A stretch of DNA of 64,000 bases from an uncultured delta proteobacterium (GTDB taxonomy: Bacteria > Myxococcota_A > UBA9160 > SZUA-336): positions 384,001 through 448,000 of the forward strand of contig CAVPHD010000004.1 in the NCBI GenBank assembly GCA_963704165.1. The letters are read 5' to 3'. Made by a program: the position numbers and the translations under genes. Numbering within the stretch: the stretch's first letter is position 1; every line of letters begins with the position of its first letter. A model generated the notes under the pieces. It made no database searches. It saw nothing but the letters and a program-made list of their open reading frames with translations, and was not told where the DNA came from. Positions 6,139 through 20,303 of this stretch are shown here, piece by piece.

Positions 6139-6849
6139 ATGAGTGACGAAGGCTTCCCGAATCGCCGGCTCGAACGCTGGCAGGTCGCGCGGAAGGAAGT
6201 GACGGGTGCGTGGAAGGAGAAGCGGCGCCTCGCCGCGGCCATGCGCACCGTGATCTCGCGGCTGGTCGAGATCGAGGCGCCCGAGGCCGAGCTCGCCGCG
6301 GCCGCGGACGGTCTCGAGCGCTACGCCGAGCGACTCGCGAGCCACCCGCGCCCGAATCGCTACGAAGGCTGGTCGGAGGTGTCGGCCTCCGGTGACGTCG
6401 GCAGCTTCTTCGATCACAGTCCGTTGATCGGGCTCTCGAACCCGCTCGCGCCGCCGGTCGAGCTGTACGCGGACGAGGACGGCCGCAGGGTGCACGGAAG
6501 GGCGGTCTTCGGATCGGCGTACGAGGGCCCGCCCGGGTGCGTGCACGGCGGCTACATCGCAGCCGCGTTCGACGAGCTTCTCGGCTTTGCCAACTCGCTC
6601 TCGGGAACACCGGGGATGACCGGCACGCTGACGGTTCGCTATCGCCGACCCACGCCGCTGCACACGGAGCTGCGCTTCGAAGGACGCTACGACCGCAGCG
6701 ACGGCCGCAAGATCTACACGTCGGCGCAGCTCTTCGCCGGAGACACGCTCTGCGCGGAGGCGGACGGTCTGTTCATCTCCGTCGGTACCGAGCGCTTCCG
6801 CGCGCTTTTCGAACAGCGCCAGAAGCGCGAGGGCGAACGCGGCTCCTGA
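6139..6849 (+). CDS. PaaI-family hotdog thioesterase
   Basis: YEGPPGCVHGGYIAAAFDE and TGTLTVRYRRPTPL. Confidence 0.88.
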   Translation: MSDEGFPNRRLERWQVARKEVTGAWKEKRRLAAAMRTVISRLVEIEAPEAELAAAADGLERYAERLASHPRPNRYEGWSEVSASGDVGSFFDHSPLIGLSNPLAPPVELYADEDGRRVHGRAVFGSAYEGPPGCVHGGYIAAAFDELLGFANSLSGTPGMTGTLTVRYRRPTPLHTELRFEGRYDRSDGRKIYTSAQLFAGDTLCAEADGLFISVGTERFRALFEQRQKREGERGS

Positions 6850-6868
6850 CGCCGCGAAGGTCCTCCGA

Positions 6869-9590
6869 TCAGTTCGTGAAGGCGGCGAGCCGCGCGGCGA
6901 CTTCGCGCGCGCTGGAGCAGCGCCGTTCCGGGTCCTTCTCGAGCAGATGGAGGATGAGCTCGGCGAGCCCGTCGGGGATGCCCGACGCGCGCTCTCGGGG
7001 ATCGGGTACGGGTGAGTGACGATGGTGGTAGACGACGTCGCCGTCGCGGTACGGGACGCCTCCGGTCGCGAGCTCGAAGAACGTGACACCGAGCGAATAC
7101 AGGTCCGCGCGCGCGTCGACGCTCTCGCCCGCAGCCTGCTCCGGCGCCATGTAGTACGGAGTCCCGCCGATCACCGTCGCGGAGCGGCGCACCTCTTCGA
7201 GCATCTTGGCGAGGCCGAAGTCCATGATCTTCACCACCTTGCCGCGCGTGAAGAACAGGTTCGAGGTCTTGATGTCGCGATGCACGATGCGACGCTCGTG
7301 CGCGTACTCGAGCCCCGCGCAGATCTGCACGCCCAGCCGGGCGCAGTCGCGCGGCGAGAGCCGCCCGGCGCGACGCAGGATCACGTGCAGGGGCTCGCCC
7401 TCGAGCAGCTCCATCGTGATGAAGAACGTGCCGTCTTCCTGATCCGCGTCGTGGATCGTCACGATGTTCGGGTGATTCAAGGCGGCGGCGGCGCGCGCCT
7501 CGCGCAGGAAGAGCTCGACGGCGGTCGGATGGTCGCGCAGGTTGTCGGGCAGGCGCTTCAGCGCGACCTCGCGGCCGAGACGTCGATCGCGCGCGCGGAA
7601 GACCACGCCCATTCCGCCGGCGCCGATCTGCTCCAGGATCTCGTAGCGGCTCTCGGCCGAGGCCTGCGCGCGCCGCCCGGACGACGCTCGACCCGAACCG
7701 GCCGATCGGTCCGCCGGAGATCCGCTTGCGCAGCCCCTCGATCCGCGTCGAGAGCTCTGGCCAGGTCGGCTCCTCCTCGCGCAGCTTCTCGAGCGATTCG
7801 AGCGCGCGCGGAAGATCTCCGCTGCGCTCCCAGAGCTCGGACAGACGTGAGCGCAGCTCGGGTGCGGCGCTCGGGGCGTCGGAACGCTCCAGCCGCTCGT
7901 GAAGCTTGTGAGCGGCGAGGTCGACGTGCCCTTCGGCTTCGAGCGCATCGACCAGCATCAGACACGCTCGCGTGTAGTTCGGATCGCCCGGCAGAACCTG
8001 CTGGAGCAGCTTGATCGCGCGACTCCGGTCGTCGCGATCGCGCGCGAGCGCGGCGGCATCGAAGTGCTCTCCGCGGCGCTCGAGGACGCCGATCACACGG
8101 TCCGCGTCCTCGGCCTCGCGGTAGCAGTCGAGCGCGCGGTCGAGCTCCGATGCCGCTTCGTACGCCTGCCCGGCGCGGACCGGGTCGCCCGCGCGGCGGT
8201 ACATGTCGCCGGCACGCACGGGCTCGCCCGCCTTCTCGTAGAGCGAAGCCGCCTGCGCCCAGTCCTCGAGCTCCTCGCGCAGGCGAGCCGCTTCGCGGGA
8301 AGTGCCCGGCGTACTCGAAGTGCTCCGCCGCGCGCGAGCGGTTGCTCTGCTCGACGTGCATCCGCGCGAGCAGGAGGTTCGAGACCTTGTCCTGTCCCTC
8401 GCGCGCGAGCGCGCGCGCGGCCGATTGGCACGTCGCCCTGCAGGTACGGCGCGACGGCGGGCGGGCAGCCCTTGAAGAGCACGCCCTCGGACACGCCGAG
8501 GTCCACCTCGACGATCCGCGTCGCGTAGTCGTCGACGTCGACCTCGCGCTCCGCGACCCGGTCGCCGGAGCCGACCGCGATCACGTGGCGACCCATCGGC
8601 AGGCCGATGCGTACCGACTGTCCGCGCGTGTGACGCAGCGTGTCTGGACGACCGTGGGCCGAGATCGTGCACTCGCGCACGGTCTGGCGGTCCCAGACGA
8701 CTCGAACCTCGACCGGGCAGGAGCGTGGCCGCAGGTCGAACTCGAGGCGGTGCGTGTCGCGGCTGCGCACGTGGATGAGCTGGGATTCGAAGGGCTGCTC
8801 GATCGGCTCGTCGCCCGAACCCGAGAACAGATCGCCATCGACCGTGATCCAGTAGCGCCCGGGAGTGAGCCCTCGGAACTGCGTCTCTCGCGCCACCAGA
8901 TAGTGTTCGGTCCGTGACGAGACCTTGCCGTGCGTCGCTTCGCGCTCGCCGCGGGGCGCCCGCCCGGTCCGGGGTTTTCCGTGCGAGAGCGTGACCGTGA
9001 AGCTGCCGCGCAGGTCGTCGGGGTAGGCGATGCAGACCACCAGGTCTCCACGGCCGCGAACGGTGCGCAGGACGACGAGCGCGACGACGAGTCCGAGCAG
9101 CGCTGCGAGCAAGCTGCGCCGTCCGGTCGGTTCAGTCGCGAAATCCGCGATCGGCAGCATTCGGCGCTGCCATTCGCCGGGAACCGCTCCCCAGGCGCGC
9201 TTCAGGGCCGTCTCGATCTCGGGCGACCAGCGCTGCCAGCTCTCCTCGACCCATGCGCGCATGTTCGGCGCCGACGAGGCGATCGAGCTCGCCGAACGAC
9301 GGGGGCCCGGGCGGCGTTGCGGGGATGTACGGCCGGGACGGAATCCTGCGCGGGCGACTCGAGGCTCGATCCGAGCGCGGATCCCGGGCGCCGTCCGTCG
9401 CCGCGTCGTCCGCCCCTTGCCCCATGTCGAGCAGGTTCCAGCTTCGCGAAGGCGCCTCGGGTTCCCGAGCGATCGATTCGGTCACCACCGGTTCGGCGGC
9501 GGACTCCTCCCCGCGCGCCGGCAGAACGGCGAGAAACCAGGCGGCGGCAAGCAGGATTGCCGCCGATCTTGCGTGTCTCGTGATGCGCAT
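6869..9590 (-). CDS. Ser/Thr protein kinase with N-terminal signal peptide, TM helix and TPR-like region (several frameshifts)
   Basis: Kinase motifs IGAGGMGVV, VALK, HRDIKTSN, DFG and GTPYYMAPE in 6869-7650. TPR-like AAxLYEKAG repeats in another frame, TM LLAALLGLVVALVVL near 9100, signal peptide from 9590. The join is inferred across frames. Confidence 0.7.
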
Positions 9591-11194: not shown

Positions 11195-12061
11195 ATGACG
11201 ACCCTCACGACCACGCCAGCCTCCTCGTCCAGACATCGGCTCGACGCCGCGCCGCCGCGCGTGGTGCTGCTGCCCGTCGTGACGACGCTGTGCGCGATTG
11301 GCGTAGTCCTCGGGTTCCTCGCCCGCGACGAGATGTACGTCACTCCCGATGCCGGACTCGGGTACGGACTCGGAGTCGCGGGACTGTGCGCGCTCTGCTC
11401 GCTCCTGCTCTACTCGCTGAGGAAGCGCGCGCGCTCTCTTCGGTCGTGGGGGGCTCTCCGGCACTGGTTCCACGTCCACATGATGCTCGGAGTGGTCGGT
11501 CCCACGCTGGTCCTCTTCCACGCCAACTTCGAAGTGCACTCGACGAACGCGGCGGTCGCTCTCGGAGCGATGGTGATCGTCGCCGCCAGTGGCTTCGTCG
11601 GGCGATTCGCCTACTCGCGCGTTCATCTGGGATTGTTCGGCCAGCGCGAGACCCTCCGCGACGTCAGCGCGCGAGCGGATGCGAGCCGCAGCGCGCTTCA
11701 CACCGCGCTGCGCGCCGTTCCGGAAGTCGAACTTTGCGTTCGCGAGTTCGAGCAGCGGGCGCTCGCTCGGTCCGGTGGGGTTCTGGCCGAGCTCTGGCGC
11801 GCGGTCGAGCTCGGCCGACAAACGCGTTCGATCCGACGGCGCGCGCGAGCGATGCTTCGCCAGGCTTCGCCGGCTGCTCTGCCGGCGGGTGCGAGTGCGG
11901 TCTCTCGCGGTCTCGACACCCACCTCGCACTGGTGCGGCGCGTGGCGGAGTTCGGTTTCTACGAGGGCGTTCTGTCCCTCTGGCACGCGCTGCACGTTCC
12001 GCTCGGCGTCGTGCTCTACATCGCGGCGGCGATTCATGTGATCGCCGTGCATCTCTACTGA
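11195..12061 (+). CDS. His-rich inner-membrane protein (ferric-reductase / cytochrome b-like), partner of the multiheme cytochrome
   Basis: About 5 hydrophobic segments with WFHVHMMLG, LFHANF, WHALHVP and IHVIAVH. Stop directly abuts the cytochrome start. Confidence 0.75.
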   Translation: MTTLTTTPASSSRHRLDAAPPRVVLLPVVTTLCAIGVVLGFLARDEMYVTPDAGLGYGLGVAGLCALCSLLLYSLRKRARSLRSWGALRHWFHVHMMLGVVGPTLVLFHANFEVHSTNAAVALGAMVIVAASGFVGRFAYSRVHLGLFGQRETLRDVSARADASRSALHTALRAVPEVELCVREFEQRALARSGGVLAELWRAVELGRQTRSIRRRARAMLRQASPAALPAGASAVSRGLDTHLALVRRVAEFGFYEGVLSLWHALHVPLGVVLYIAAAIHVIAVHLY

Positions 12062-13630
12062 GTGCGCGCGAACGCACTCGCGAGTCGGCTGGCACTCGTC
12101 GTCGGTCTCTTGGCTTCGAGCGCCGGCGCGCAGACGTTCGAGCGACTCGTGATGCCCGGAGTGCTCTCGAAGGCTCACGCGGACCTCGAGTCCGACTGTT
12201 CGAAGTGCCACACGCCCTTCAAGCGCGCGGAGCAGTCGGAGCTCTGCCTCGGCTGCCACGACCACCAAGCGGTCGCAGCCGACATTCGCGACAAGCGGGG
12301 ATTCCACGGGACGGCTCCCCCCGTCGAAGGCGCCGAGTGCAGATCGTGTCATCCGGAGCACAAGGGGCGCGACGCCGACATCATCGGTCTCGAGCGGAGC
12401 TCCTTCCCCCACGACTTCACCGACTACCCGTTGCGCGGTGCGCACGTGCGGGTCTCCTGCGAAGGATGTCACGACCCGGACAAGGCCTTCCGCGACGCAC
12501 GCGCGAGCTGTGCCGACTGCCACGCCGCGGCGGACGTGCACCGCGGGGAGCTCGGAAAGGACTGCGAAAGCTGTCACACGGAAGAGCGCTGGCGAGAGGC
12601 TCGATTCGACCACGGCAAGACGAAATTCCCTCTCGAAGGAAAGCACCGGGACGTCGCGTGCGCGCTTTGCCACGCGGGCGAGCGCTATTCGGGAATACCG
12701 ATGGACTGCGTCGGCTGTCATCGCGTGGATGACGTCCACCGGGGTCGATTCGGCGACGCGTGCGAGAGCTGTCATACGAGCGGCCAGTGGAAGACGCAGA
12801 ACTTCGACCACGCAGGAAAGACCCGGTTCCCACTCACCGGCAAGCATGCGAAGGTGCCTTGCGAGGGCTGTCATCCGGACGGCCTGGTCGATCAGAAGCT
12901 CGAGCTGAACTGCCTCTCGTGTCACCGCGGAGACGACGTCCACGACGGACGAAACGGCGCCGACTGCGAGCGATGCCACGGAACATCTGCCTGGAAGCCC
13001 GCGACGTTCGATCACGATCGGAACACGGAGTTTCCGCTTCACGGAGCCCATCGAGAAGTGAGCTGTGCGGCCTGTCACACGAAGCCGGTGCATCAACAGA
13101 AGCTGGGTTCGACCTGCATCGCCTGTCACGTCGCGGACGACGTGCACAAAGAGCAGCTCGGCGGCGACTGCGGCCGCTGTCACGGCGAGATCAGCTGGAA
13201 GGAGAAGGTCAGGTTCGATCACGACCTGGCGCGTTTTCCATTGCTCGGGCTGCACGCCGTCGTCGCATGCGAGGAGTGCCACTCGACCGGGGTCTATCGC
13301 GATACGGAGCAGAAGTGCGTCGCCTGCCACGCGCGGCAAGACGTGCACGAGGACCGGCTGGGTCCGAAGTGCGAGGTCTGCCACACCCCCAACGGCTGGA
13401 AGGTCTGGAAGTTCGACCACGCCACGCAGACGAAGTTCCCGCTCCGGGGCGGCCACTCTCAAGTGGCGTGTGAGACCTGCCACGTCGAGCCGGTCGCGAC
13501 CAAGCCCTCTCTCTCGACCGGATGCGACTCCTGTCACGGCGCGGAGGATCCCCACCGAGGTGCGTTCGGAAGGAACTGCGAGCGCTGTCACGGCGAGCAG
13601 TCGTGGAGAGACGTGAGGATCGCGCGCTGA
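12062..13630 (+). CDS. Periplasmic multiheme cytochrome c, 21 CxxCH
   Basis: 21 CxxCH counted, signal peptide (AGA/Q), repeating three-heme modules FDH...FPLxGxH..C..CH. Confidence 0.95.
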   Translation: MRANALASRLALVVGLLASSAGAQTFERLVMPGVLSKAHADLESDCSKCHTPFKRAEQSELCLGCHDHQAVAADIRDKRGFHGTAPPVEGAECRSCHPEHKGRDADIIGLERSSFPHDFTDYPLRGAHVRVSCEGCHDPDKAFRDARASCADCHAAADVHRGELGKDCESCHTEERWREARFDHGKTKFPLEGKHRDVACALCHAGERYSGIPMDCVGCHRVDDVHRGRFGDACESCHTSGQWKTQNFDHAGKTRFPLTGKHAKVPCEGCHPDGLVDQKLELNCLSCHRGDDVHDGRNGADCERCHGTSAWKPATFDHDRNTEFPLHGAHREVSCAACHTKPVHQQKLGSTCIACHVADDVHKEQLGGDCGRCHGEISWKEKVRFDHDLARFPLLGLHAVVACEECHSTGVYRDTEQKCVACHARQDVHEDRLGPKCEVCHTPNGWKVWKFDHATQTKFPLRGGHSQVACETCHVEPVATKPSLSTGCDSCHGAEDPHRGAFGRNCERCHGEQSWRDVRIAR

Positions 13631-13642
13631 CCTTCGCCTGAC

Positions 13643-15208
13643 TCAGAACAGGCCGAGCAATCCTCGGCTCTTCCCGGATTCGGTCTCGAGATAGCTTGCG
13701 ATCTCTGGATGGCCGGCCTGACGGGCCTGCGCTGCCGCGGTGAGGCCGATCTCGTTCTTTGCGCCGATGCGTACGTCTCGCCGGACCAGAAGCTCCACGA
13801 CCGCCTGATGTCCCGACGCTGCTGCAAACATCAGGGCCGTGTCGCGACGTTGCCCACGCGCATCGGGATCCGCATTCGCGTCGAGGAGGGCTTTGGCGGT
13901 CGCGAGCTGCCCGTTGCTCGCGGCGAGCATGAGCGCGGTGTTCCCCAGGCGGTTGGGTGCGTCGATCCCGGCACCGCGGTCGAGCAGGGCGCGCACGGTG
14001 ACGACATCGCCCGCGGCCGCAGCACGCGAGAGCACGGGCGTCCCATCCGCGCAGATCGTCGCGGTCGAGGCGCCGTGTTCGACGAGGGCGGCGGAGATCG
14101 CCGGGCGTTGACCGCGCAGCGCCAGACACAGCATCGACTCGCCAGAGTCGTCACGCCTCTCCGCTCGTGCTCCGAGAGCGAGCAGCGCGCGCGCGGCATC
14201 GGAGCTTCCAGAGCGTATCGCGTAGACGAGAGGCGGGATCCCGTCCGCGTCCGGATCGTCGGGACGGGCACCTGCGCGGACGAGAAGCTGGACGATCTCG
14301 GCCGAGCCGTGACTTGCGGCCCAGCCGAGCGGGGTTCGTCGCGCGCCATCGACGGCGTTCGGATTTGCGGAGTTCTCCAGCAATACGCTGACCGTGCTCA
14401 CGTGGCCTTCGCTCGAAGCGAGGGACAGCGCGTTCCGGCCATCTGCCGCGCGAGCGCGGAGGTCCGCGTGCGCGCGCACGAGCGCGGAGACGATCTCGGC
14501 GTGGCCGTTGCGTGCGGCTGCGAGCAGGGGGGTGTCACCTGCATCGTCGCGCACCTCGAGCGAGACCCTTCGCGCGATCAGACCGAGGGCGAGGTCGGTC
14601 TCGCCACGCCTCGAAGCGACGACGAGCGCGTCGGTTCCGTCGTGGGTCTCCGCCAACCAGGCCGCGGAATCCGCCGCACGCACCGACGCGGGAACGGGCT
14701 GCGGCGCCGCCCGCGTCTTTGCCCGCGCGCGTTCCTTGGCGGGTGCCGGGCTCCGAGCAGTTCTCGCCTGCGCGTCCTCGGGCTCCGCCTCGAGTTCGTC
14801 GAGCTTCGCGATCGCCCCCGCGTGTCCCTGATCCGCGGCCGCCCGAAACCAGCGCAACGCGGCCTTCCGATCGCGCTTCGTTCCCCAGCCGTCGCGATAC
14901 AGTCCAGCGACACAGAATTGTGACCGAGCATCGCCGCTCTCTGCCGAGGTGAGCCACCAATGGAACGCCTGCTCGGGGTTCTGCTTCACGCCGCGTCCCG
15001 AGCGATACAGCGAGCCGAGCTGGTATTGCGCGTCGGGATCTCCCTTCTCGGCGAGTACGCTCCAGAGAGTCGCCGCGCGTTCGAAGTCGCGCAGGCGAGC
15101 CGCCAGACGGGCGTCCTCCGCCGGGTCGGCGAGAGAGGTCGAGGCGGTCGAGAGCGCCACGGCCACCACCACGAGAAGCGCCCAGACGCTAGTGAAGTGG
15201 TGTGCCAC
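13643..15208 (-). CDS. Secreted Sel1-repeat + ankyrin-repeat protein
   Basis: GTG at 15208 with GGAG upstream, signal peptide, Sel1 (AQYQLGSLYRSGRGV) and about 9 ankyrin repeats (GDTPLLAAARNGH, GNTALMLAASNGQ). Confidence 0.88.
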   Translation of the reverse strand: MAHHFTSVWALLVVVAVALSTASTSLADPAEDARLAARLRDFERAATLWSVLAEKGDPDAQYQLGSLYRSGRGVKQNPEQAFHWWLTSAESGDARSQFCVAGLYRDGWGTKRDRKAALRWFRAAADQGHAGAIAKLDELEAEPEDAQARTARSPAPAKERARAKTRAAPQPVPASVRAADSAAWLAETHDGTDALVVASRRGETDLALGLIARRVSLEVRDDAGDTPLLAAARNGHAEIVSALVRAHADLRARAADGRNALSLASSEGHVSTVSVLLENSANPNAVDGARRTPLGWAASHGSAEIVQLLVRAGARPDDPDADGIPPLVYAIRSGSSDAARALLALGARAERRDDSGESMLCLALRGQRPAISAALVEHGASTATICADGTPVLSRAAAAGDVVTVRALLDRGAGIDAPNRLGNTALMLAASNGQLATAKALLDANADPDARGQRRDTALMFAAASGHQAVVELLVRRDVRIGAKNEIGLTAAAQARQAGHPEIASYLETESGKSRGLLGLF

Positions 15209-16511
15209 GTTTCGTCTCCGTCTCGATTCCGATCGCTTGCAGGAACGCGGTTGGCAGCACACCCCCCACGCAAACGATCACGGCGTCGCTCGCGACGTCT
15301 TCGATCCCGTCTCCGGTCTCAAGTACCGCGACGCCCGGGCGGATCTCGACGACCGTGGAGCCGAGCCGAACGAACAGCTGACCCGAATCGCGCGCAGCTT
15401 CGACACGGGCGCGGTTTGCCGGCTTCACGCGCGAGAACGCATCTCCCCGGTAAGAAAGCGTGACGCGAGTGCCGGGCTCGCTCGCGAGGCCCAGCGCCGC
15501 CTCGAGCGCGCTGTCTCCGCCGCCGACGACGAGTACGCTCTGACCGCGGTACTGCTCCGGATCGACGAGCCGGTAGACGACGTGCGGCGACTCCTCTCCG
15601 GGAACTCCGAGCTTCGCGGGCGTTCCGCGACGACCGATCGCGAGCACGAGCGTTCGCGCGAGGTGACTCGAACGCGAGGTCCTCACTTCGAAGCCGGTTT
15701 CCACTCGTCCGACGGCCTCGACGCGTTCCTGGTAACGGACGTCGAGGCCGGTCCCTCGAACGACATCGGTGAAGAGCTGGAGCAGCGACTCCTTGCTGAT
15801 CTCGCCCGTCGGGATCCGACCGTACAGAGGCAAGGTGCAGGCGGACGTCATGACGATCTTGCCTCGGGGATAGTGCGCGACCGTTCCACCCAGGCTCTCC
15901 TGCTCGATCGTCGCGAACCGAAGACCCTTCTCCTTCGCGGCGAGCGAGGCCGAGAGACCGGCGGGTCCGGCGCCGACGATCAAGACGTCGAGAACCTCGT
16001 CCGAGGTGCGCCCGTCGAGAGCTCCGACGACCGACTCGATCACCTGTCGGCCCTGCTCGATGGCATTCCGGATCAGGCCCATTCCTCCGAGCTCGCCGGC
16101 CACGAAGATACCCGGCACAGCGGTCTGGAAGTCGGGGCCGAGGCGCGGGATCTCGACTCCGCGACTCTCGGTTCCCAACACGAGCGTGATCGCGTCGAAC
16201 GGGCAGGCGGTCTGGCACGCGCCGTGACCGATGCAGTGCGTGGGGTTCACGAGCACGGCCTTTCCGCGCACGAGACCCAGCACGTTCTCCTCCGGGCAGG
16301 CTTTCACGCACGAGCCGCAGCCGAGACAGCGATTCGGATTGATCGAAGGGTGAAGCGACGCGGGCTCGGTGAGCTTCGATGCGATGGCTTCGCGAAGCGT
16401 CGCAGCGCTTCGGCGCTCCATTCTTCGCCTCGACGCGGAGTATCCGGCGAGCGCGAGCCCGAACGGGACGAGATAGAGCAGAACGAAGACGGAAGACGAC
16501 TCAGAAATCAT
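15189..16511 (-). CDS. Membrane-anchored 2x[4Fe-4S] ferredoxin + FAD/NAD(P)H oxidoreductase (TrxR/FNR-like)
   Basis: N-terminal TM, CLGCGSCVKACP and CIGHGACQTACP, GAGPAG, VGGGDSA. No CxxC at the TrxR position. Confidence 0.9.
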   Translation of the reverse strand: MISESSSVFVLLYLVPFGLALAGYSASRRRMERRSAATLREAIASKLTEPASLHPSINPNRCLGCGSCVKACPEENVLGLVRGKAVLVNPTHCIGHGACQTACPFDAITLVLGTESRGVEIPRLGPDFQTAVPGIFVAGELGGMGLIRNAIEQGRQVIESVVGALDGRTSDEVLDVLIVGAGPAGLSASLAAKEKGLRFATIEQESLGGTVAHYPRGKIVMTSACTLPLYGRIPTGEISKESLLQLFTDVVRGTGLDVRYQERVEAVGRVETGFEVRTSRSSHLARTLVLAIGRRGTPAKLGVPGEESPHVVYRLVDPEQYRGQSVLVVGGGDSALEAALGLASEPGTRVTLSYRGDAFSRVKPANRARVEAARDSGQLFVRLGSTVVEIRPGVAVLETGDGIEDVASDAVIVCVGGVLPTAFLQAIGIETETKRGTPLH

Positions 16512-18675
16512 ATCGGAGCCCACCCGAGAAGGCGTAGATGAACTCATCGCCGCCGGTCGCGTCGAACGAGCGGCTCGTCCATTCCAATCCCGCATCTCCG
16601 AAGAGCGTCAGCTTCCAGATGCGGTACTCGACACCGAGGTACGGCCGGAGGGTGAGCGATCCGTTCCGCGCACGCGAAGCGGCCGCGGCCGCGGTCGGAT
16701 CCTCTGCGGTCTCGTCGGGATCGGGAATGAACTCGTCGCGCCCGCGGCGATTTCGCCAATCGAGGCGGATGCGCGGCAGGACGCGGAGCTTCGGCGTGAT
16801 CGGGTAGCGCTCGTTGATGATCAACGACCAGGTGTTCGAGACGTCGCCGTCGAAGTAGCGCACACCGATCGTGCCGACGTCACCGTTCGTGAAGAGATTC
16901 GAGACGACGAGCTGCGGGTAGTAGGAGAACTCCCAACCCGTGCTCTCCATCGCGTCGACGCCGCCAGATGCGGGAGTGTCGGACAGGTACGAAGCCGAGA
17001 CGTCGAGCGCGATCTGCACCCGATCGCTCAGCTGGTGAGATGCCCCGAGGCTCGTCAGCGCGGAGCGCGGCGTGCGATCCTTCGCGAGCTGCTTGATCTC
17101 GCTCCGTGAGTACAGCTCGTGCAGATCCTCGAGGCGATCGACGCCCTGGCCTTGAATCGCGTTCCAGCTGGTCAGGATCGGGCTGTTCCGATAGTCGACG
17201 AACAGGGTCGCGCTGGTCGTGGGACCGAGCTGCCAGTTCCCGCTCAGGAGGGCGGTGTTGAGATCGCCGAAGTAGAGGTCGTAGTCGACGTAGCTCGCCA
17301 CGAAGAGATCGTCGTCGGCATAGCGAAGCTCTCCGCCGATGCCGTTCCGGTCGAGCATTCCGTCGGCGTGCTGTCGAAGCGAGAAGATCTGCACATCGAC
17401 GAGCCCGCCAAGGTCTTCGGCGTCGAGGCTCAGGCCGTACAGGAATCGGCCCGTTTCGATCGAGTCGGAGTTCTGGATCTCGACCGGGGAGCCGCCGCGA
17501 ACCGTGACGCGCCACTGCTCGGCGAGCCGACGACTGAGGCGAACGCCGTCGAAGCGCGTCGTGACCCCGGCCGTGTTTCCCGGCTGCCGTCCGAACGTCG
17601 CGGAGTACGGTCCCGTGCGCTGCGCGACGTCGAGGAAGAGCGCGCTGACCCGCGTGTCGTTGTGGTCCATTCCTTCGGCGAAGTCGAAGCGGTACGACGC
17701 CGAGGCCAGGCCTCGCCACGCGAACTTGTCTCCGCGAGCGCGAGTCGAGACGCTGAGATCCGAGAACAGCGATGAATCGGTGAGGAGCGCGCCGGTTGCA
17801 TCGCTGTCCAGGGTTTCGTGCCGGTATTGCGTCGATGCGCTGCCGAAGAGCTCGAGCTCACTCGGGCGCGTCGCGGCCATCGTTCCGGTACCCGACCGCC
17901 CCGAGGGCTTCGCGCCTGCGGTCAGAAGCGCGTCCAGCCGCTGGCGGACTCGCGCGGATCCCTCGCCATCCGGATACCACTTCAGGTACTCCTCGTACTC
18001 GGCCTTCGCGTGTGCGAGCTGACCACGGCGCTCGCGCGCGACGCCGAGCAGCTCCTTCGCCTCGCGCGAATTCACGTGCTCGGGAAGAGTGACGATCTTC
18101 GTGAAGACACGGATCGCCTGGTCGAAATCGCCGGCCGTCATGGCGTTTCGCCCGGACGCCATGAGCTCGTGGCTGCGCAGGAGCGGGTCGCTGGATTCGG
18201 GTCGCGAGGCGGCGCCGCGACCCTCTCGAGCCCGCACCGAGACGACGAGGCTCCGGAAGTCTCCACCCTGCCTGACCTCGAAGCTGACGCCGCGAGAGAA
18301 GCGAAGGACCAGGTAGCGCCCGTCGGGTCGCCCGCCCTCGTAGCTGACGTCGAGAAGGGGAACCGGGGAGTCGGGCGGCGCGGAGAGGGTCTCGGTGCCG
18401 GCGAGCAAGGAGACGGTGCGCGGGGCCAGAGAGATCGGGTCGATCTGGATCTGCAGCGTTTCGCCGCTCGCCGCGGGGGCGTGGCGGAGATAGCGAACCG
18501 GCGTCATGAAGCGAACGACCACGTCGATCGTTCCGCCGTGCTCGCGCATCTCGATCGCCTCGAGGACGCGTTGCGGCGTCGGCGCCGCTCGCGCTCGCCC
18601 CGGCGCGAGGAGTGCCAGCAAGAGCCAGGCGAGCATCGGGACGATTGTGCCGGGCCGCCCCGGCGTCGGAATCAC
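16501..18675 (-). CDS. Outer-membrane beta-barrel protein with N-terminal periplasmic and TPR domains (putative porin of a porin-cytochrome complex)
   Basis: Signal peptide, TPR-like helices (AKELLGVARERRGQLAHAKAEYEEYLKWYP), amphipathic strands and terminal GGLRYDF. Overlaps both neighbours. Confidence 0.8.
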   Translation of the reverse strand: MIPTPGRPGTIVPMLAWLLLALLAPGRARAAPTPQRVLEAIEMREHGGTIDVVVRFMTPVRYLRHAPAASGETLQIQIDPISLAPRTVSLLAGTETLSAPPDSPVPLLDVSYEGGRPDGRYLVLRFSRGVSFEVRQGGDFRSLVVSVRAREGRGAASRPESSDPLLRSHELMASGRNAMTAGDFDQAIRVFTKIVTLPEHVNSREAKELLGVARERRGQLAHAKAEYEEYLKWYPDGEGSARVRQRLDALLTAGAKPSGRSGTGTMAATRPSELELFGSASTQYRHETLDSDATGALLTDSSLFSDLSVSTRARGDKFAWRGLASASYRFDFAEGMDHNDTRVSALFLDVAQRTGPYSATFGRQPGNTAGVTTRFDGVRLSRRLAEQWRVTVRGGSPVEIQNSDSIETGRFLYGLSLDAEDLGGLVDVQIFSLRQHADGMLDRNGIGGELRYADDDLFVASYVDYDLYFGDLNTALLSGNWQLGPTTSATLFVDYRNSPILTSWNAIQGQGVDRLEDLHELYSRSEIKQLAKDRTPRSALTSLGASHQLSDRVQIALDVSASYLSDTPASGGVDAMESTGWEFSYYPQLVVSNLFTNGDVGTIGVRYFDGDVSNTWSLIINERYPITPKLRVLPRIRLDWRNRRGRDEFIPDPDETAEDPTAAAAASRARNGSLTLRPYLGVEYRIWKLTLFGDAGLEWTSRSFDATGGDEFIYAFSGGLRYDF

Positions 18676-20303
18676 CAGTCACCTCTGGACGCGCGGTGTT
18701 CCCCACTTCGCGACTCCTGGATCCGGGTCAGGGAACTGTCGGTGTAGGTGTGGCAGCTTCCCGTGCAGTCGCGGAGCTCGCTGACCGTGTAGAGCACTCG
18801 AGGCGTATCGACCTTCTCGTGCTTGTCGGCTCTGAAGTCCGTGGCGTGGCAGCCCGCGCAGTCGGGCCGGTAGCTCGCGTTCCGCCAGGCATTCGCCTGC
18901 GTGTTGCCAATGTGACAATCGCTGCAGTCGCCCACCGAGCGGTGACCGACGGGGTAGTTCGGTGAGCTGTGGCTGAACGTGGAAGGCGTCCAACGCGTGG
19001 TGGAGTGGCAATCCACGCAATCGAGTGACGTCACGAAATGATTCGACGGCTTTCCTGTCGCGCTACTCCCGTTGTGACAGGTCCCGCAGTTCCCGGTGAC
19101 GCTGGCGTGGTCGAAGCGCGCGGGGAGCCAGGCCAGCGTCGAGTGGCAGTCCTCACAGGTGTTCGCGCTGGCGACGTGATTCGCCGACTTGCCCGTCGCG
19201 GTCGTGCCGTTGTGACAGGTGATGCAGTTCCCGGTGACGCTGGCGTGGTCGAAGCGCGCGGGGAGCCAGGCGTTGGTGGTGTGGCAGTCCTCGCAGGCAT
19301 TCGAGCTCTGGATGTGGTTCGAGTTCTTGCCGGTGGCGGTCGTGCCGTTGTGACAGGTGGAGCAGGCGCCGGTGACGCTGGCGTGGTCGAAGCGCGCGGG
19401 GAGCCAGGCGTTGGTGGTGTGGCAGTCCTCGCAGGCATTCGAGCTCTGGATGTGGTTCGAGTTCTTGCCGGTGGCGGTCGTGCCGTTGTGACAGGTGGAG
19501 CAGGCGCCGGTGACGCTGGCGTGGTCGAAGCGCGCGGGGAGCCAGGCGGTGGTGGTGTGGCAGTCCTCGCAGGCGTTCGAGCTCTGGATGTGGCGCGAGT
19601 TCTTGCCGGTGGCGGTCGTGCCGTTGTGACAGGTGGAGCAGGCGCCGGTGACGCTGGCGTGGTCGAAGCGCGCGGGGAGCCAGGCGGTGGTGGTGTGGCA
19701 GTCCTCGCAGGCGTTCGAGCTCTGGATGTGGCGCGAGTTCTTGCCGGTGGCGGTCGTGCCGTTGTGACAGGTGGAGCAGGCGCCGGTGACGCTGGCGTGG
19801 TCGAAGCGCGCGGGGAGCCAGGCGTTGGTGGTGTGGCACACATCGCAGTTGTTCGACGACGCCGGGTGATTCGCCGGCTTGCCCATGACGATGGTCCCGT
19901 TGTGGCAACTGGCGCAGCTGGCGGTCGCGTCGAGGTGATCAAATCGTGCGCCGCGCCAGGTCGCGACGGAGTGACATTCCTCGCAGGGTGCCGAGGTGCT
20001 GATGTGCCTCACCGGCTTGGCGGTCAGCGCTCGGGATCCCGCGCCTCCGTGGCACGCGGCGCACTTCGTCGGTGTTCCCTGGAACGCTCCCGCGATGTGG
20101 CACGCCTCGCAGGCGACGTCGGCGTGGGCTCCATTCAACGGAAAGCCGGTGCGCATGTGGTCGAACTCGAGCGGCGCCTCGGCCCTGGGTGCCGCCGCTG
20201 CCGAAAAGATCAGCGCCACCGAAACTCCGCCGATCGCGAGCCAGGTTCCGACTCGAGCTGCAGGTTCCAGATGGAGCAGGGGCGAACGGCTACCGCGCGG
20301 CAT
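18672..20303 (-). CDS. Multiheme cytochrome c, 19 CxxCH + 1 CxxxCH, with 46-aa tandem repeats
   Basis: Motifs counted in the translation. Hydrophobic N-terminal export signal. ATG 20303 preceded by GAGG. Confidence 0.93.
   Translation of the reverse strand: MPRGSRSPLLHLEPAARVGTWLAIGGVSVALIFSAAAAPRAEAPLEFDHMRTGFPLNGAHADVACEACHIAGAFQGTPTKCAACHGGAGSRALTAKPVRHISTSAPCEECHSVATWRGARFDHLDATASCASCHNGTIVMGKPANHPASSNNCDVCHTTNAWLPARFDHASVTGACSTCHNGTTATGKNSRHIQSSNACEDCHTTTAWLPARFDHASVTGACSTCHNGTTATGKNSRHIQSSNACEDCHTTTAWLPARFDHASVTGACSTCHNGTTATGKNSNHIQSSNACEDCHTTNAWLPARFDHASVTGACSTCHNGTTATGKNSNHIQSSNACEDCHTTNAWLPARFDHASVTGNCITCHNGTTATGKSANHVASANTCEDCHSTLAWLPARFDHASVTGNCGTCHNGSSATGKPSNHFVTSLDCVDCHSTTRWTPSTFSHSSPNYPVGHRSVGDCSDCHIGNTQANAWRNASYRPDCAGCHATDFRADKHEKVDTPRVLYTVSELRDCTGSCHTYTDSSLTRIQESRSGEHRASRGDW
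19070..19838. repeat. 138-bp coding tandem repeat (about 5.5 copies, two hemes per unit)
   Basis: gaagcgcgcggggagccaggc recurs at 19113, 19251, 19389, 19527, 19665 and 19803 (exact 138-bp period). Confidence 0.95.

Follow-up and report, generated by a model that had tools for sequence, protein, structure and literature searches.

A six-gene PCC3 cluster of a Myxococcota-like bacterium and its companion NAD(P)H oxidoreductase: a possible route for exporting reducing power

From where does the porin-cytochrome cluster known as PCC3 draw its electrons, and in which direction do they move? This question is raised by a six-gene locus at positions 11195-20303 of the window, which here means the whole stretch of 64,000 nucleotides analysed (assembly GCA_963704165.1, contig CAVPHD010000004.1, positions 384,001 to 448,000) from an uncultured delta proteobacterium. 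Since 2017 PCC3 has figured as a candidate iron oxidase with a link to quinones, and it is defined in print by four genes and a connection to quinone (He et al. 2017, PMC5566968). According to the same source, PCC3 is found in Fe(II) oxidisers, and most of its hosts are not known metal cyclers; extracellular electron transfer through it is stated to be untested (bioRxiv 10.1101/2025.02.27.639646). The present locus adds two genes to the published four, one for a membrane-anchored FAD/NAD(P)H oxidoreductase (OXR) and one for a Sel1-ankyrin protein. It represents a variant, with six genes, of a predicted system already known, and its interest is mainly that it redirects, and makes testable, what PCC3 does: OXR is found with the PCC3 inner-membrane protein (IMP) across phyla, and with a cytoplasmic NAD(P)H flavoenzyme tightly linked to the cluster, both the input and the direction to be expected of the system change. 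The evidence leans slightly towards IMP and OXR forming a two-component NOX-like module that would export NADPH electrons through a heme wire.

All six open reading frames (ORFs) are present and intact. They form a plus-strand and a minus-strand unit that converge across a gap of 12 bp. On the plus strand, the stop codon of the IMP gene (11195..12061) directly abuts the GTG start of a gene for a 522-aa cytochrome (12062..13630). On the minus strand, a 20-heme cytochrome gene (18672..20303) is followed by genes for a barrel protein (16501..18675), OXR (15189..16511) and the Sel1-ankyrin protein (13643..15208), each junction overlapping, by 4, 11 and 20 nt in turn. Positions 20303, 16511 and 15208 were chosen as starts from sequence resembling ribosome-binding sites, coupling and homologue length, since longer open frames exist (that of the Sel1-ankyrin gene begins at 15262). 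Pfam matches on the locus proteins are c7/c3 domains, TPR, Fer4 with Pyr_redox, and Sel1 with ankyrin. The two cytochromes together carry 41 heme-binding motifs, and because the next-richest ORF of the genome has only 13 CxxCH and the same gene set is found again in other genomes, the multiheme cluster lies far beyond chance; a shadow-ORF artefact was rejected on motifs and conservation. The locus lies on contig C4, and each of the six genes is single-copy in the 3.87-Mb, 84%-complete genome. A sequence-only reading of the window had described two convergent, tightly coupled units with about 40 hemes, encoding a His-rich membrane protein, a 21-heme and a 19-20-heme cytochrome, a TPR/beta-barrel protein and a Sel1-ankyrin protein, and had assigned them to PCC3. 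The overlaps and the motif counts bear out this layout, and the IMP motifs, heme pattern and predicted barrel described below support the assignment, so that the cluster almost certainly belongs to PCC3.

The published PCC3 IMP has about 300 aa and five transmembrane (TM) helices, with SGXXG on TM4 and WX3HX13H on TM3 and TM5 (PMC5566968). The plus-strand protein of the window has 288 aa with 13 His. Its five hydropathy peaks predict five TM helices, its Lys/Arg pattern an N-in/C-out topology, and the roughly 120 aa between TM4 and TM5 are predicted to be cytoplasmic. It contains two WX3HX13H motifs (H95/H109 and H267/H281) and SGXXG (motif positions 91, 132 and 263), none of which varies among the 77 homologues that were aligned out of 120 listed. 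The ferric reductase/NOX (FRD) family is likewise marked by two HX13H motifs for heme b, on TM3 and TM5, and judged by these motifs the IMP is likely a di-heme b, ferric-reductase-like protein. One Atlas neighbour cluster of it is auto-named 'Ferric reductase like' at 0.97, which is a lead only. No Pfam model matched the IMP, and its profile searched against PDB sequences returned noise only (best E 0.12).

The heme pattern agrees with this assignment. The published periplasmic cytochrome of PCC3 has a median of 21 hemes and 22-39 aa per heme (PMC5566968). The first cytochrome of the window carries 21 CxxCH in 522 aa (24.9 aa per heme), a Sec-type signal judged by hydropathy and eye, triheme repeats of about 67 aa and a bis-His pattern with 24 non-motif His and 2 Met. 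In 14 of 16 same-class loci the first cytochrome likewise has 21 motifs, the remaining two being cut by a contig end. The second, with 19 CxxCH and one CxxxCH (27.1 aa per heme), is rich in Thr, Ser, Ala and Gly (42%, vs 27% in the 21-heme protein) and built of 46-aa diheme repeats, in keeping with the large, T/S/A/G-rich repeat cytochrome of published PCC3; both proteins have about one non-motif His per heme. Its diheme repeat is encoded by a 138-bp tandem repeat (19069..19856; 5.7 copies, 94% matches), and such near-identical units could expand, contract or be mis-assembled, which makes the heme count of this gene less certain. Heme number in the first cytochrome varies little across loci, keeping close to 21, whereas the second has anything from 11 to 89. 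Such a pattern suits a rod that spans the periplasm and carries an outer extension of variable size; a periplasmic span has likewise been suggested by Hoover et al. (PMC9900912). The 21-heme cytochrome is thus likely a periplasm-spanning wire, and by analogy with the 'extracellular' type of PCC3 the 20-heme protein would lie outside the cell. The longest example is an outer-type cytochrome of 2,148 aa with 89 CxxCH (L006:12728-19171, plus strand) in a metagenome-assembled genome (MAG) titled Omnitrophota, which exceeds the largest known in 2017, of 85 hemes per He et al. (PMC5566968).

The 724-aa product of 16501..18675 had been read as a TPR/beta-barrel protein, and the predicted fold is indeed a barrel. 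The AlphaFold2 model of the mature protein (87 sequences, pLDDT 88.7, pTM 0.77) shows an N-terminal beta domain, TPR helices and a beta-barrel of 22 counted strands; the protein has a signal and ends in Phe. For comparison, 22 TM regions are predicted for the PCC3 porin of Leptothrix cholodnii. Foldseek matched the model to porins and ushers, BcsC among them, and the top VIA-align matches are 22-strand TonB-dependent receptors (best 4epa, Z 14.9, rmsd 5.2, 385 aligned). MtrB is not among the listed fold matches, which excludes nothing. MtrCAB and MtoAB share the porin-cytochrome logic; their components are decaheme proteins, a barrel of larger size and an outer cytochrome that is a lipoprotein and is supplied by CymA. 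The 20-heme protein matches the 333-aa chain 6r2q_A, presumably MtrA, weakly (E 1.5e-5), and membership in these systems was rejected since the DmsE/MtrA-type decaheme model TIGR03508 scored 84.4 and 16.8 against 192.2 and the OmcA/MtrC-type model TIGR03507 scored 25.4 against 209.3. The Sel1-ankyrin protein, for which both Pfam Sel1 and Ank were matched, has a hydrophobic N-terminal signal and is likely a periplasmic scaffold or assembly factor.

A component that bears on input and direction is OXR, a protein of 440 aa with a TM anchor, a ferredoxin domain and an FAD/NAD(P)H domain. Its single N-terminal TM helix is N-out and followed by a basic patch, so that the catalytic part is predicted to be cytoplasmic. 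The ferredoxin domain has one motif set with four Cys and another with three Cys and a His at the second ligand position. This His is invariant in 99 aligned homologues and occurs in 82 of 85 orthologues from the fetched loci; in the first motif, Ser replaces Cys at the second ligand site in 49 of the 85, the OXR of the window having Cys. The sequence-only reading of a TM-2x[4Fe-4S]-FAD oxidoreductase therefore stands as to the anchor, the Fe-S domain and the FAD part, and is inexact as to two [4Fe-4S] clusters. The nearest solved relatives of the flavin part are YpdA, thioredoxin reductase (TrxR) and ferredoxin-NADP reductase (FNR) (PDB 7a7b, 7a76 and 3ab1; E 1e-38 to 1e-22). A thioredoxin reductase was rejected because the redox-active CxxC is absent from the FAD/NAD part (0 of 81 orthologues), and a YpdA bacillithiol disulfide reductase (TIGR04018) because the score was 153.6 bits against an NCBIfam cut-off of 339.9. 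GGG[DN]SA occurs in 75 of 85 orthologues, followed by [SV][YH]R in 69, together presumably an NADPH-type signature, and by these motifs OXR is likely NADPH-specific. YpdA/Bdr and TrxR-fold ferredoxin-NADP reductases likewise have FAD and NADPH-type domains and lack CxxC, whereas OXR adds a fused ferredoxin domain and a membrane anchor. Moreover, its FAD domain appears circularly permuted relative to YpdA, TrxR and FNR, as suggested by three weak and concordant signs: the stretch around residues 120-160 aligns with the C-terminal end of Pfam Pyr_redox_2 (positions 262-291, E 0.1), that of YpdA (not significant) and that of a host flavoprotein, the main Pyr_redox_2 match covering model positions 2-254.

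Is OXR peculiar to this host? The sequence-only reading had spoken of the conduit's own oxidoreductase, which is misleading, and specificity to this host was rejected: OXR is a general companion of the IMP family across phyla. Among 301 genomes of the phylum, IMP was found in 66 (a floor, from a stricter first look) and OXR in 68, with 53 genomes having both, 13 IMP only, 15 OXR only and 220 neither; these genomes include kin and are not independent, for which reason a Fisher p of about 1e-32 was set aside. OXR lies within 10 kb of 51 of the 72 IMP matches, and in 14 of the 15 OXR-only genomes a broader IMP profile finds an IMP beside OXR. The 17 same-class genomes with IMP are the same 17 that have OXR, which in one of them (G012) is unlinked and weaker. 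In the 16 fetched same-class loci, OXR occurs in 12, the barrel in 13, the Sel1-ankyrin gene in 13 and all six genes in 10; three of the four loci lacking OXR stop at a contig edge. Loci with the titles Nitrospirota and Omnitrophota have the same gene set. L007, titled Nitrospirota, belongs to a second phylum, in which 15 of 121 genomes have OXR; every one of these is among the 20 with IMP, and 13 have both on one contig within 12 kb. In metagenomes (best 80 of 579 loci), OXR accompanies 25 of the 31 loci of at least 9 kb, the barrel 17 and the ankyrin gene 16. The link is kept through at least four gene orders. These genes thus co-occur widely, as a PCC3-like conduit had been expected to do.

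IMP and OXR are also found fused. By coordinates, 14 pairs of IMP and OXR matches share one open frame, and single-ORF fusions were checked at nine loci (three of these pairs and six others): seven read IMP-OXR, with a short linker between the last IMP helix and the OXR anchor, and two read OXR-IMP, the cytoplasmic end of OXR continuing into the cytoplasmic start of IMP. Two orders imply at least two fusion events, and both fit the predicted topology with a cytoplasmic catalytic domain. An ESMFold2 model of the IMP-OXR complex scored 0.47, against 0.00 for the best of three controls; runs shared at least 80% of contacts, and partner pLDDT was at least 78. The mark for this score was reached by 116 of 157 solved pairs and 2 of 215 mismatched pairs. 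The earlier suggestion of a link from NAD(P)H through FAD and Fe-S to heme b is given real support by the fusions in both orders and weak support by the predicted complex. In several IMPs that lack OXR, a ferredoxin domain is fused on in its place (four of four such proteins scanned). This second fusion type, seen at L035, L039, L041 and L046, has 650-1,140 aa and joins a 4Fe-4S dicluster domain to an IMP at the C-terminus, the N-terminal 270 aa having no Pfam match at 1e-6; L037, L040, L043 and L047 belong to it as judged by size and position, and a 26-31-heme cytochrome mostly follows. Divergent IMP and OXR genes also occur at five loci of one genus (L049-L053), where the cytochromes carry 20, 10 and 8 hemes (some 29) and nothing matches the barrel profile. 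Similar porin-less clusters are listed by He et al. (PMC5566968) with an unnamed 'other redox protein'. IMP-OXR would be a portable module that feeds multiheme cytochromes, with PCC3 as one of its applications.

In Pseudomonadota, the link between OXR and PCC3 comes from a single organism, Sideroxydans lithotrophicus ES-1. Its PCC3 cluster Slit_0867-0870 encodes cytochromes of 17 and 21 hemes (PMC8788666), and the flanking gene Slit_0866 belongs to the same family as OXR, so that the barrel is followed by the oxidoreductase as in the window. By eye, published peptides of Slit_0866 match the OXR of the window, and those of Slit_0867 match the barrel (FDGVAASY vs FDGVRLSR; VEYDLYLK vs VDYDLYFG). 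The ES-1 porins are annotated as SPOR and TPR proteins, like homologues of the barrel of the window. The next gene in ES-1 is a Na/H exchanger, where the window has the Sel1-ankyrin gene. Slit_0866 and Slit_0867 were detected by proteomics, the former through five peptides, four of them unique (PMC12016527), which points to a probable ES-1 paralogue that could serve the second PCC3 cluster.

How might electrons travel through such an assembly? NADPH would reduce the FAD of OXR, a TrxR/FNR fold without the disulfide, and electrons would pass to two Fe-S clusters, the His-ligated or 3Fe cluster probably being nearest the membrane. They could then cross by the two b hemes of IMP to the 21-heme periplasmic cytochrome, and from there reach the 20-heme cytochrome, which the 22-strand barrel would either hold or serve as an export channel. 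The final acceptor would lie outside the cell and could be Fe(III), Mn oxides, humics or a partner cell. The likely purpose would be to export reductant or to balance redox state, rather than to respire in the classical sense: redox span and membrane potential both favour outward transfer, which would thus spend, not build, proton-motive force. The closest working analogy is offered by MsrQ/Fre and NOX/FRD proteins, in which two bis-His b hemes receive cytosolic NAD(P)H electrons via a flavoprotein; MsrQ, of the FRD family, is argued to draw on cytosolic NADH/Fre and not on quinones (PMC12525009). Unlike these, the IMP lacks a sequence match to Pfam or to solved FRD proteins, its donor is a TrxR-fold Fe-S enzyme, and the acceptor is a multiheme wire and not MsrP or O2.

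Several observations weigh against this export reading, and those on gene content also bear on the model published by He et al. (PMC5566968), in which IMP trades electrons with the pool of quinones in respiratory extracellular electron transfer (EET). OXR would then be an accessory, for example an NAD(P)H dehydrogenase reducing quinone via IMP or a reductant source for heme maturation. PCC3 clusters without adjacent OXR do exist: none lies within 20 kb at L016, 6 of the 31 metagenome loci of at least 9 kb lack it (some cut by contig ends), and the ES-1 PCC3 cluster Slit_1446-1449 has an HD phosphohydrolase and an aldolase as its neighbours. A viral locus (L151, 7980-12088) encodes an IMP, a barrel homologue and 4- and 7-heme cytochromes, and no OXR was found in the fetched stretches of this or four further viral loci (L149-L153). 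The score of the predicted IMP-OXR complex lies in the band up to 0.60, which holds 18 solved pairs and both mismatched pairs that reached the mark. MsrQ binds ubiquinone too (PMC12525009). Only a quinone-linked route would conserve energy on general bioenergetic grounds, and a wire of 41 hemes that spends proton-motive force is costly, its benefit unexplained. Against the published model, OXR orthologues almost never occur without an IMP nearby and are fused to it in two orders, and the quinone link of He et al. is a hypothesis from analogy. The five viral IMPs are short (153-177 aa) and lack the cytoplasmic region between TM4 and TM5 along with OXR (five of five loci), a hint that this region docks OXR. 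The quinone-pool account is therefore regarded as unlikely, with perhaps a quarter of our belief.

A second group of adverse observations concerns the outer membrane. All nine checked fusions lie in distant loci without a barrel match (0 of 42), so that they show coupling of IMP to OXR and not to a porin conduit; none of these 42 loci matched the barrel or ankyrin queries. The 20-heme cytochrome has no lipobox. Alignments of the barrel model to plugged barrels also cover its N-terminal domain, and the lumen of the predicted barrel may be plugged. It could be that nothing is conducted across the outer membrane, with the TPR-barrel exporting, anchoring or being plugged and the cytochromes, fed by the IMP-OXR module, acting as a periplasmic store or reducing a soluble acceptor. 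TPR helices joined to a barrel are reminiscent of exporters, BcsC for one; IMP-OXR-multiheme clusters that give no barrel match are frequent; and the extracellular cytochrome Slit_1448 of ES-1 was not detected by proteomics. The T/S/A/G-rich cytochrome occurs with the barrel, is translationally coupled to it in the window, and varies in heme number while the first cytochrome hardly does, as would be expected if an outer extension were attached to a periplasmic span of constant length. A purely periplasmic function is considered rather improbable.

The third concern is direction. Fe(II), reduced minerals or a partner cell might instead be the source of electrons flowing inward, with OXR reducing NAD(P)+ as a ferredoxin-NADP reductase, which it resembles; the presence of PCC3 in Fe(II) oxidisers would fit such an inward conduit. 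In late cultures on magnetite, Slit_0866 was up (log2 2.35, q 0.018; log2 2.55, q 0.003), as was Slit_0867; an uptake role would predict the same, and the rise of Slit_0866 cuts either way. By an estimate from textbook values, a donor near -0.47 V would be required to reduce NADP+ (about -0.32 V) against the membrane potential; common Fe(II) species lie above this. RuBisCO had no match in the 84%-complete host genome. On dissolved Fe(II), expression of the two PCC3 clusters of ES-1 goes down (PMC8788666), which disfavours inward flow and agrees with outward flow. The inward reading is held to be very unlikely. No experiments on any PCC3 were found in the literature, which weighs against the export reading as well.

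If electrons are exported through the IMP-OXR module, PCC3 is an electron exporter rather than an iron oxidase, genome calls of iron oxidation based on it need revision, and heterotrophs of several phyla have an unrecognised route to export reducing power. A broader proposal, held more tentatively and somewhat more doubted than believed, is that PCC3 is a widespread trans-envelope NAD(P)H oxidase, with the circularly permuted Fe-S flavoenzyme, so far overlooked, and the di-heme IMP acting together as a quinone-independent, NOX-like electron pump that 40 to >100 hemes connect from the cytoplasm to the outside, and that it has been misread as a marker of iron oxidase; it would represent a mode of EET that bypasses the respiratory chain. 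NADPH-dependent heme reduction provides a simple assay, and cultured ES-1 carries Slit_0866-0870, so that the uncultured host is not needed for the test.

The locus resembles published PCC3 (PMC5566968, PMC9900912) in its four components, IMP motifs, pair of cytochromes with 25-27 aa per heme and 22-strand barrel. It differs in being split into two convergent units, in carrying the Sel1-ankyrin gene and in its Myxococcota-like host, those of He et al. being Proteobacteria; OXR is not mentioned in the accessible text of that paper (PMC5566968). More broadly, no published link of the OXR family or the Sel1-ankyrin gene to PCC3 was found in a search in which subscription papers were thinly covered and Figure 6 (which might draw an oxidoreductase gene) and tables 3-4 of He et al. 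lay outside. A flavoenzyme in a porin-cytochrome cluster has precedent, since PCC4 (PMC5566968) and ptdABCDEFG (bioRxiv 10.1101/2023.11.21.568154) are described as combining a porin, multiheme cytochromes and a ferric-reductase-like IMP with an Fe-S protein and an FAD/NAD(P) oxidoreductase. Membership in PCC4/Ptd was rejected on hemes (21 and 20, vs three periplasmic cytochromes of 4, 5 and 10); these clusters have no giant extracellular cytochrome, the PCC4 IMP is of another family (He et al.), and the Fe-S clusters sit on a cNMP-binding protein, whereas those of the window sit on the TM-anchored flavoenzyme.

The host had been taken to be heterotrophic and outside recognised metal-cycling lineages. 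It looks heterotrophic and aerobic-capable, with matches to the heme-copper oxidase family (3), secretins (5) and molybdopterin enzymes (7), and the first part of that view agrees with the missing RuBisCO match. On the second, Myxococcota are no strangers to EET: in a lake survey they ranked top for novel EET cytochrome clusters (bioRxiv 10.1101/2022.03.26.485925). Four matches to cytochrome c assembly genes, together with the secretins, indicate that maturation and a possible secretion route exist. Elsewhere in the host genome are a 13-heme protein that stands alone and is related to the 21-heme one, ORFs with 9 and 7 hemes, and a cluster read by eye as alternative-complex-III-like (G000:C4:20810-22216, C7:207725-209983, C1:272106-273935 and C5:202621-209906).

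The closest named locus, in a MAG titled uncultured Myxococcales, has the same gene order, an IMP of 70% identity and the same flanking acyltransferase at 82%. The IMP profile had no match in a plasmid collection, no sigma-70 promoter-like site was found at the cluster, and terminators were not in excess (3 found, 4.2 expected). No sequencing runs covering 11195-18700 were listed, which has no bearing on expression or repeat copy number. The cluster is neighboured by a HAD-acyltransferase and an amino-acid permease, both unrelated to it. Elsewhere in the window, at 6714-9262 on the minus strand, TPR and protein-kinase matches fall in overlapping ORFs of different frames (6714-8672 and 6869-7948), which suggests a single frameshifted kinase-TPR gene or sequence errors.

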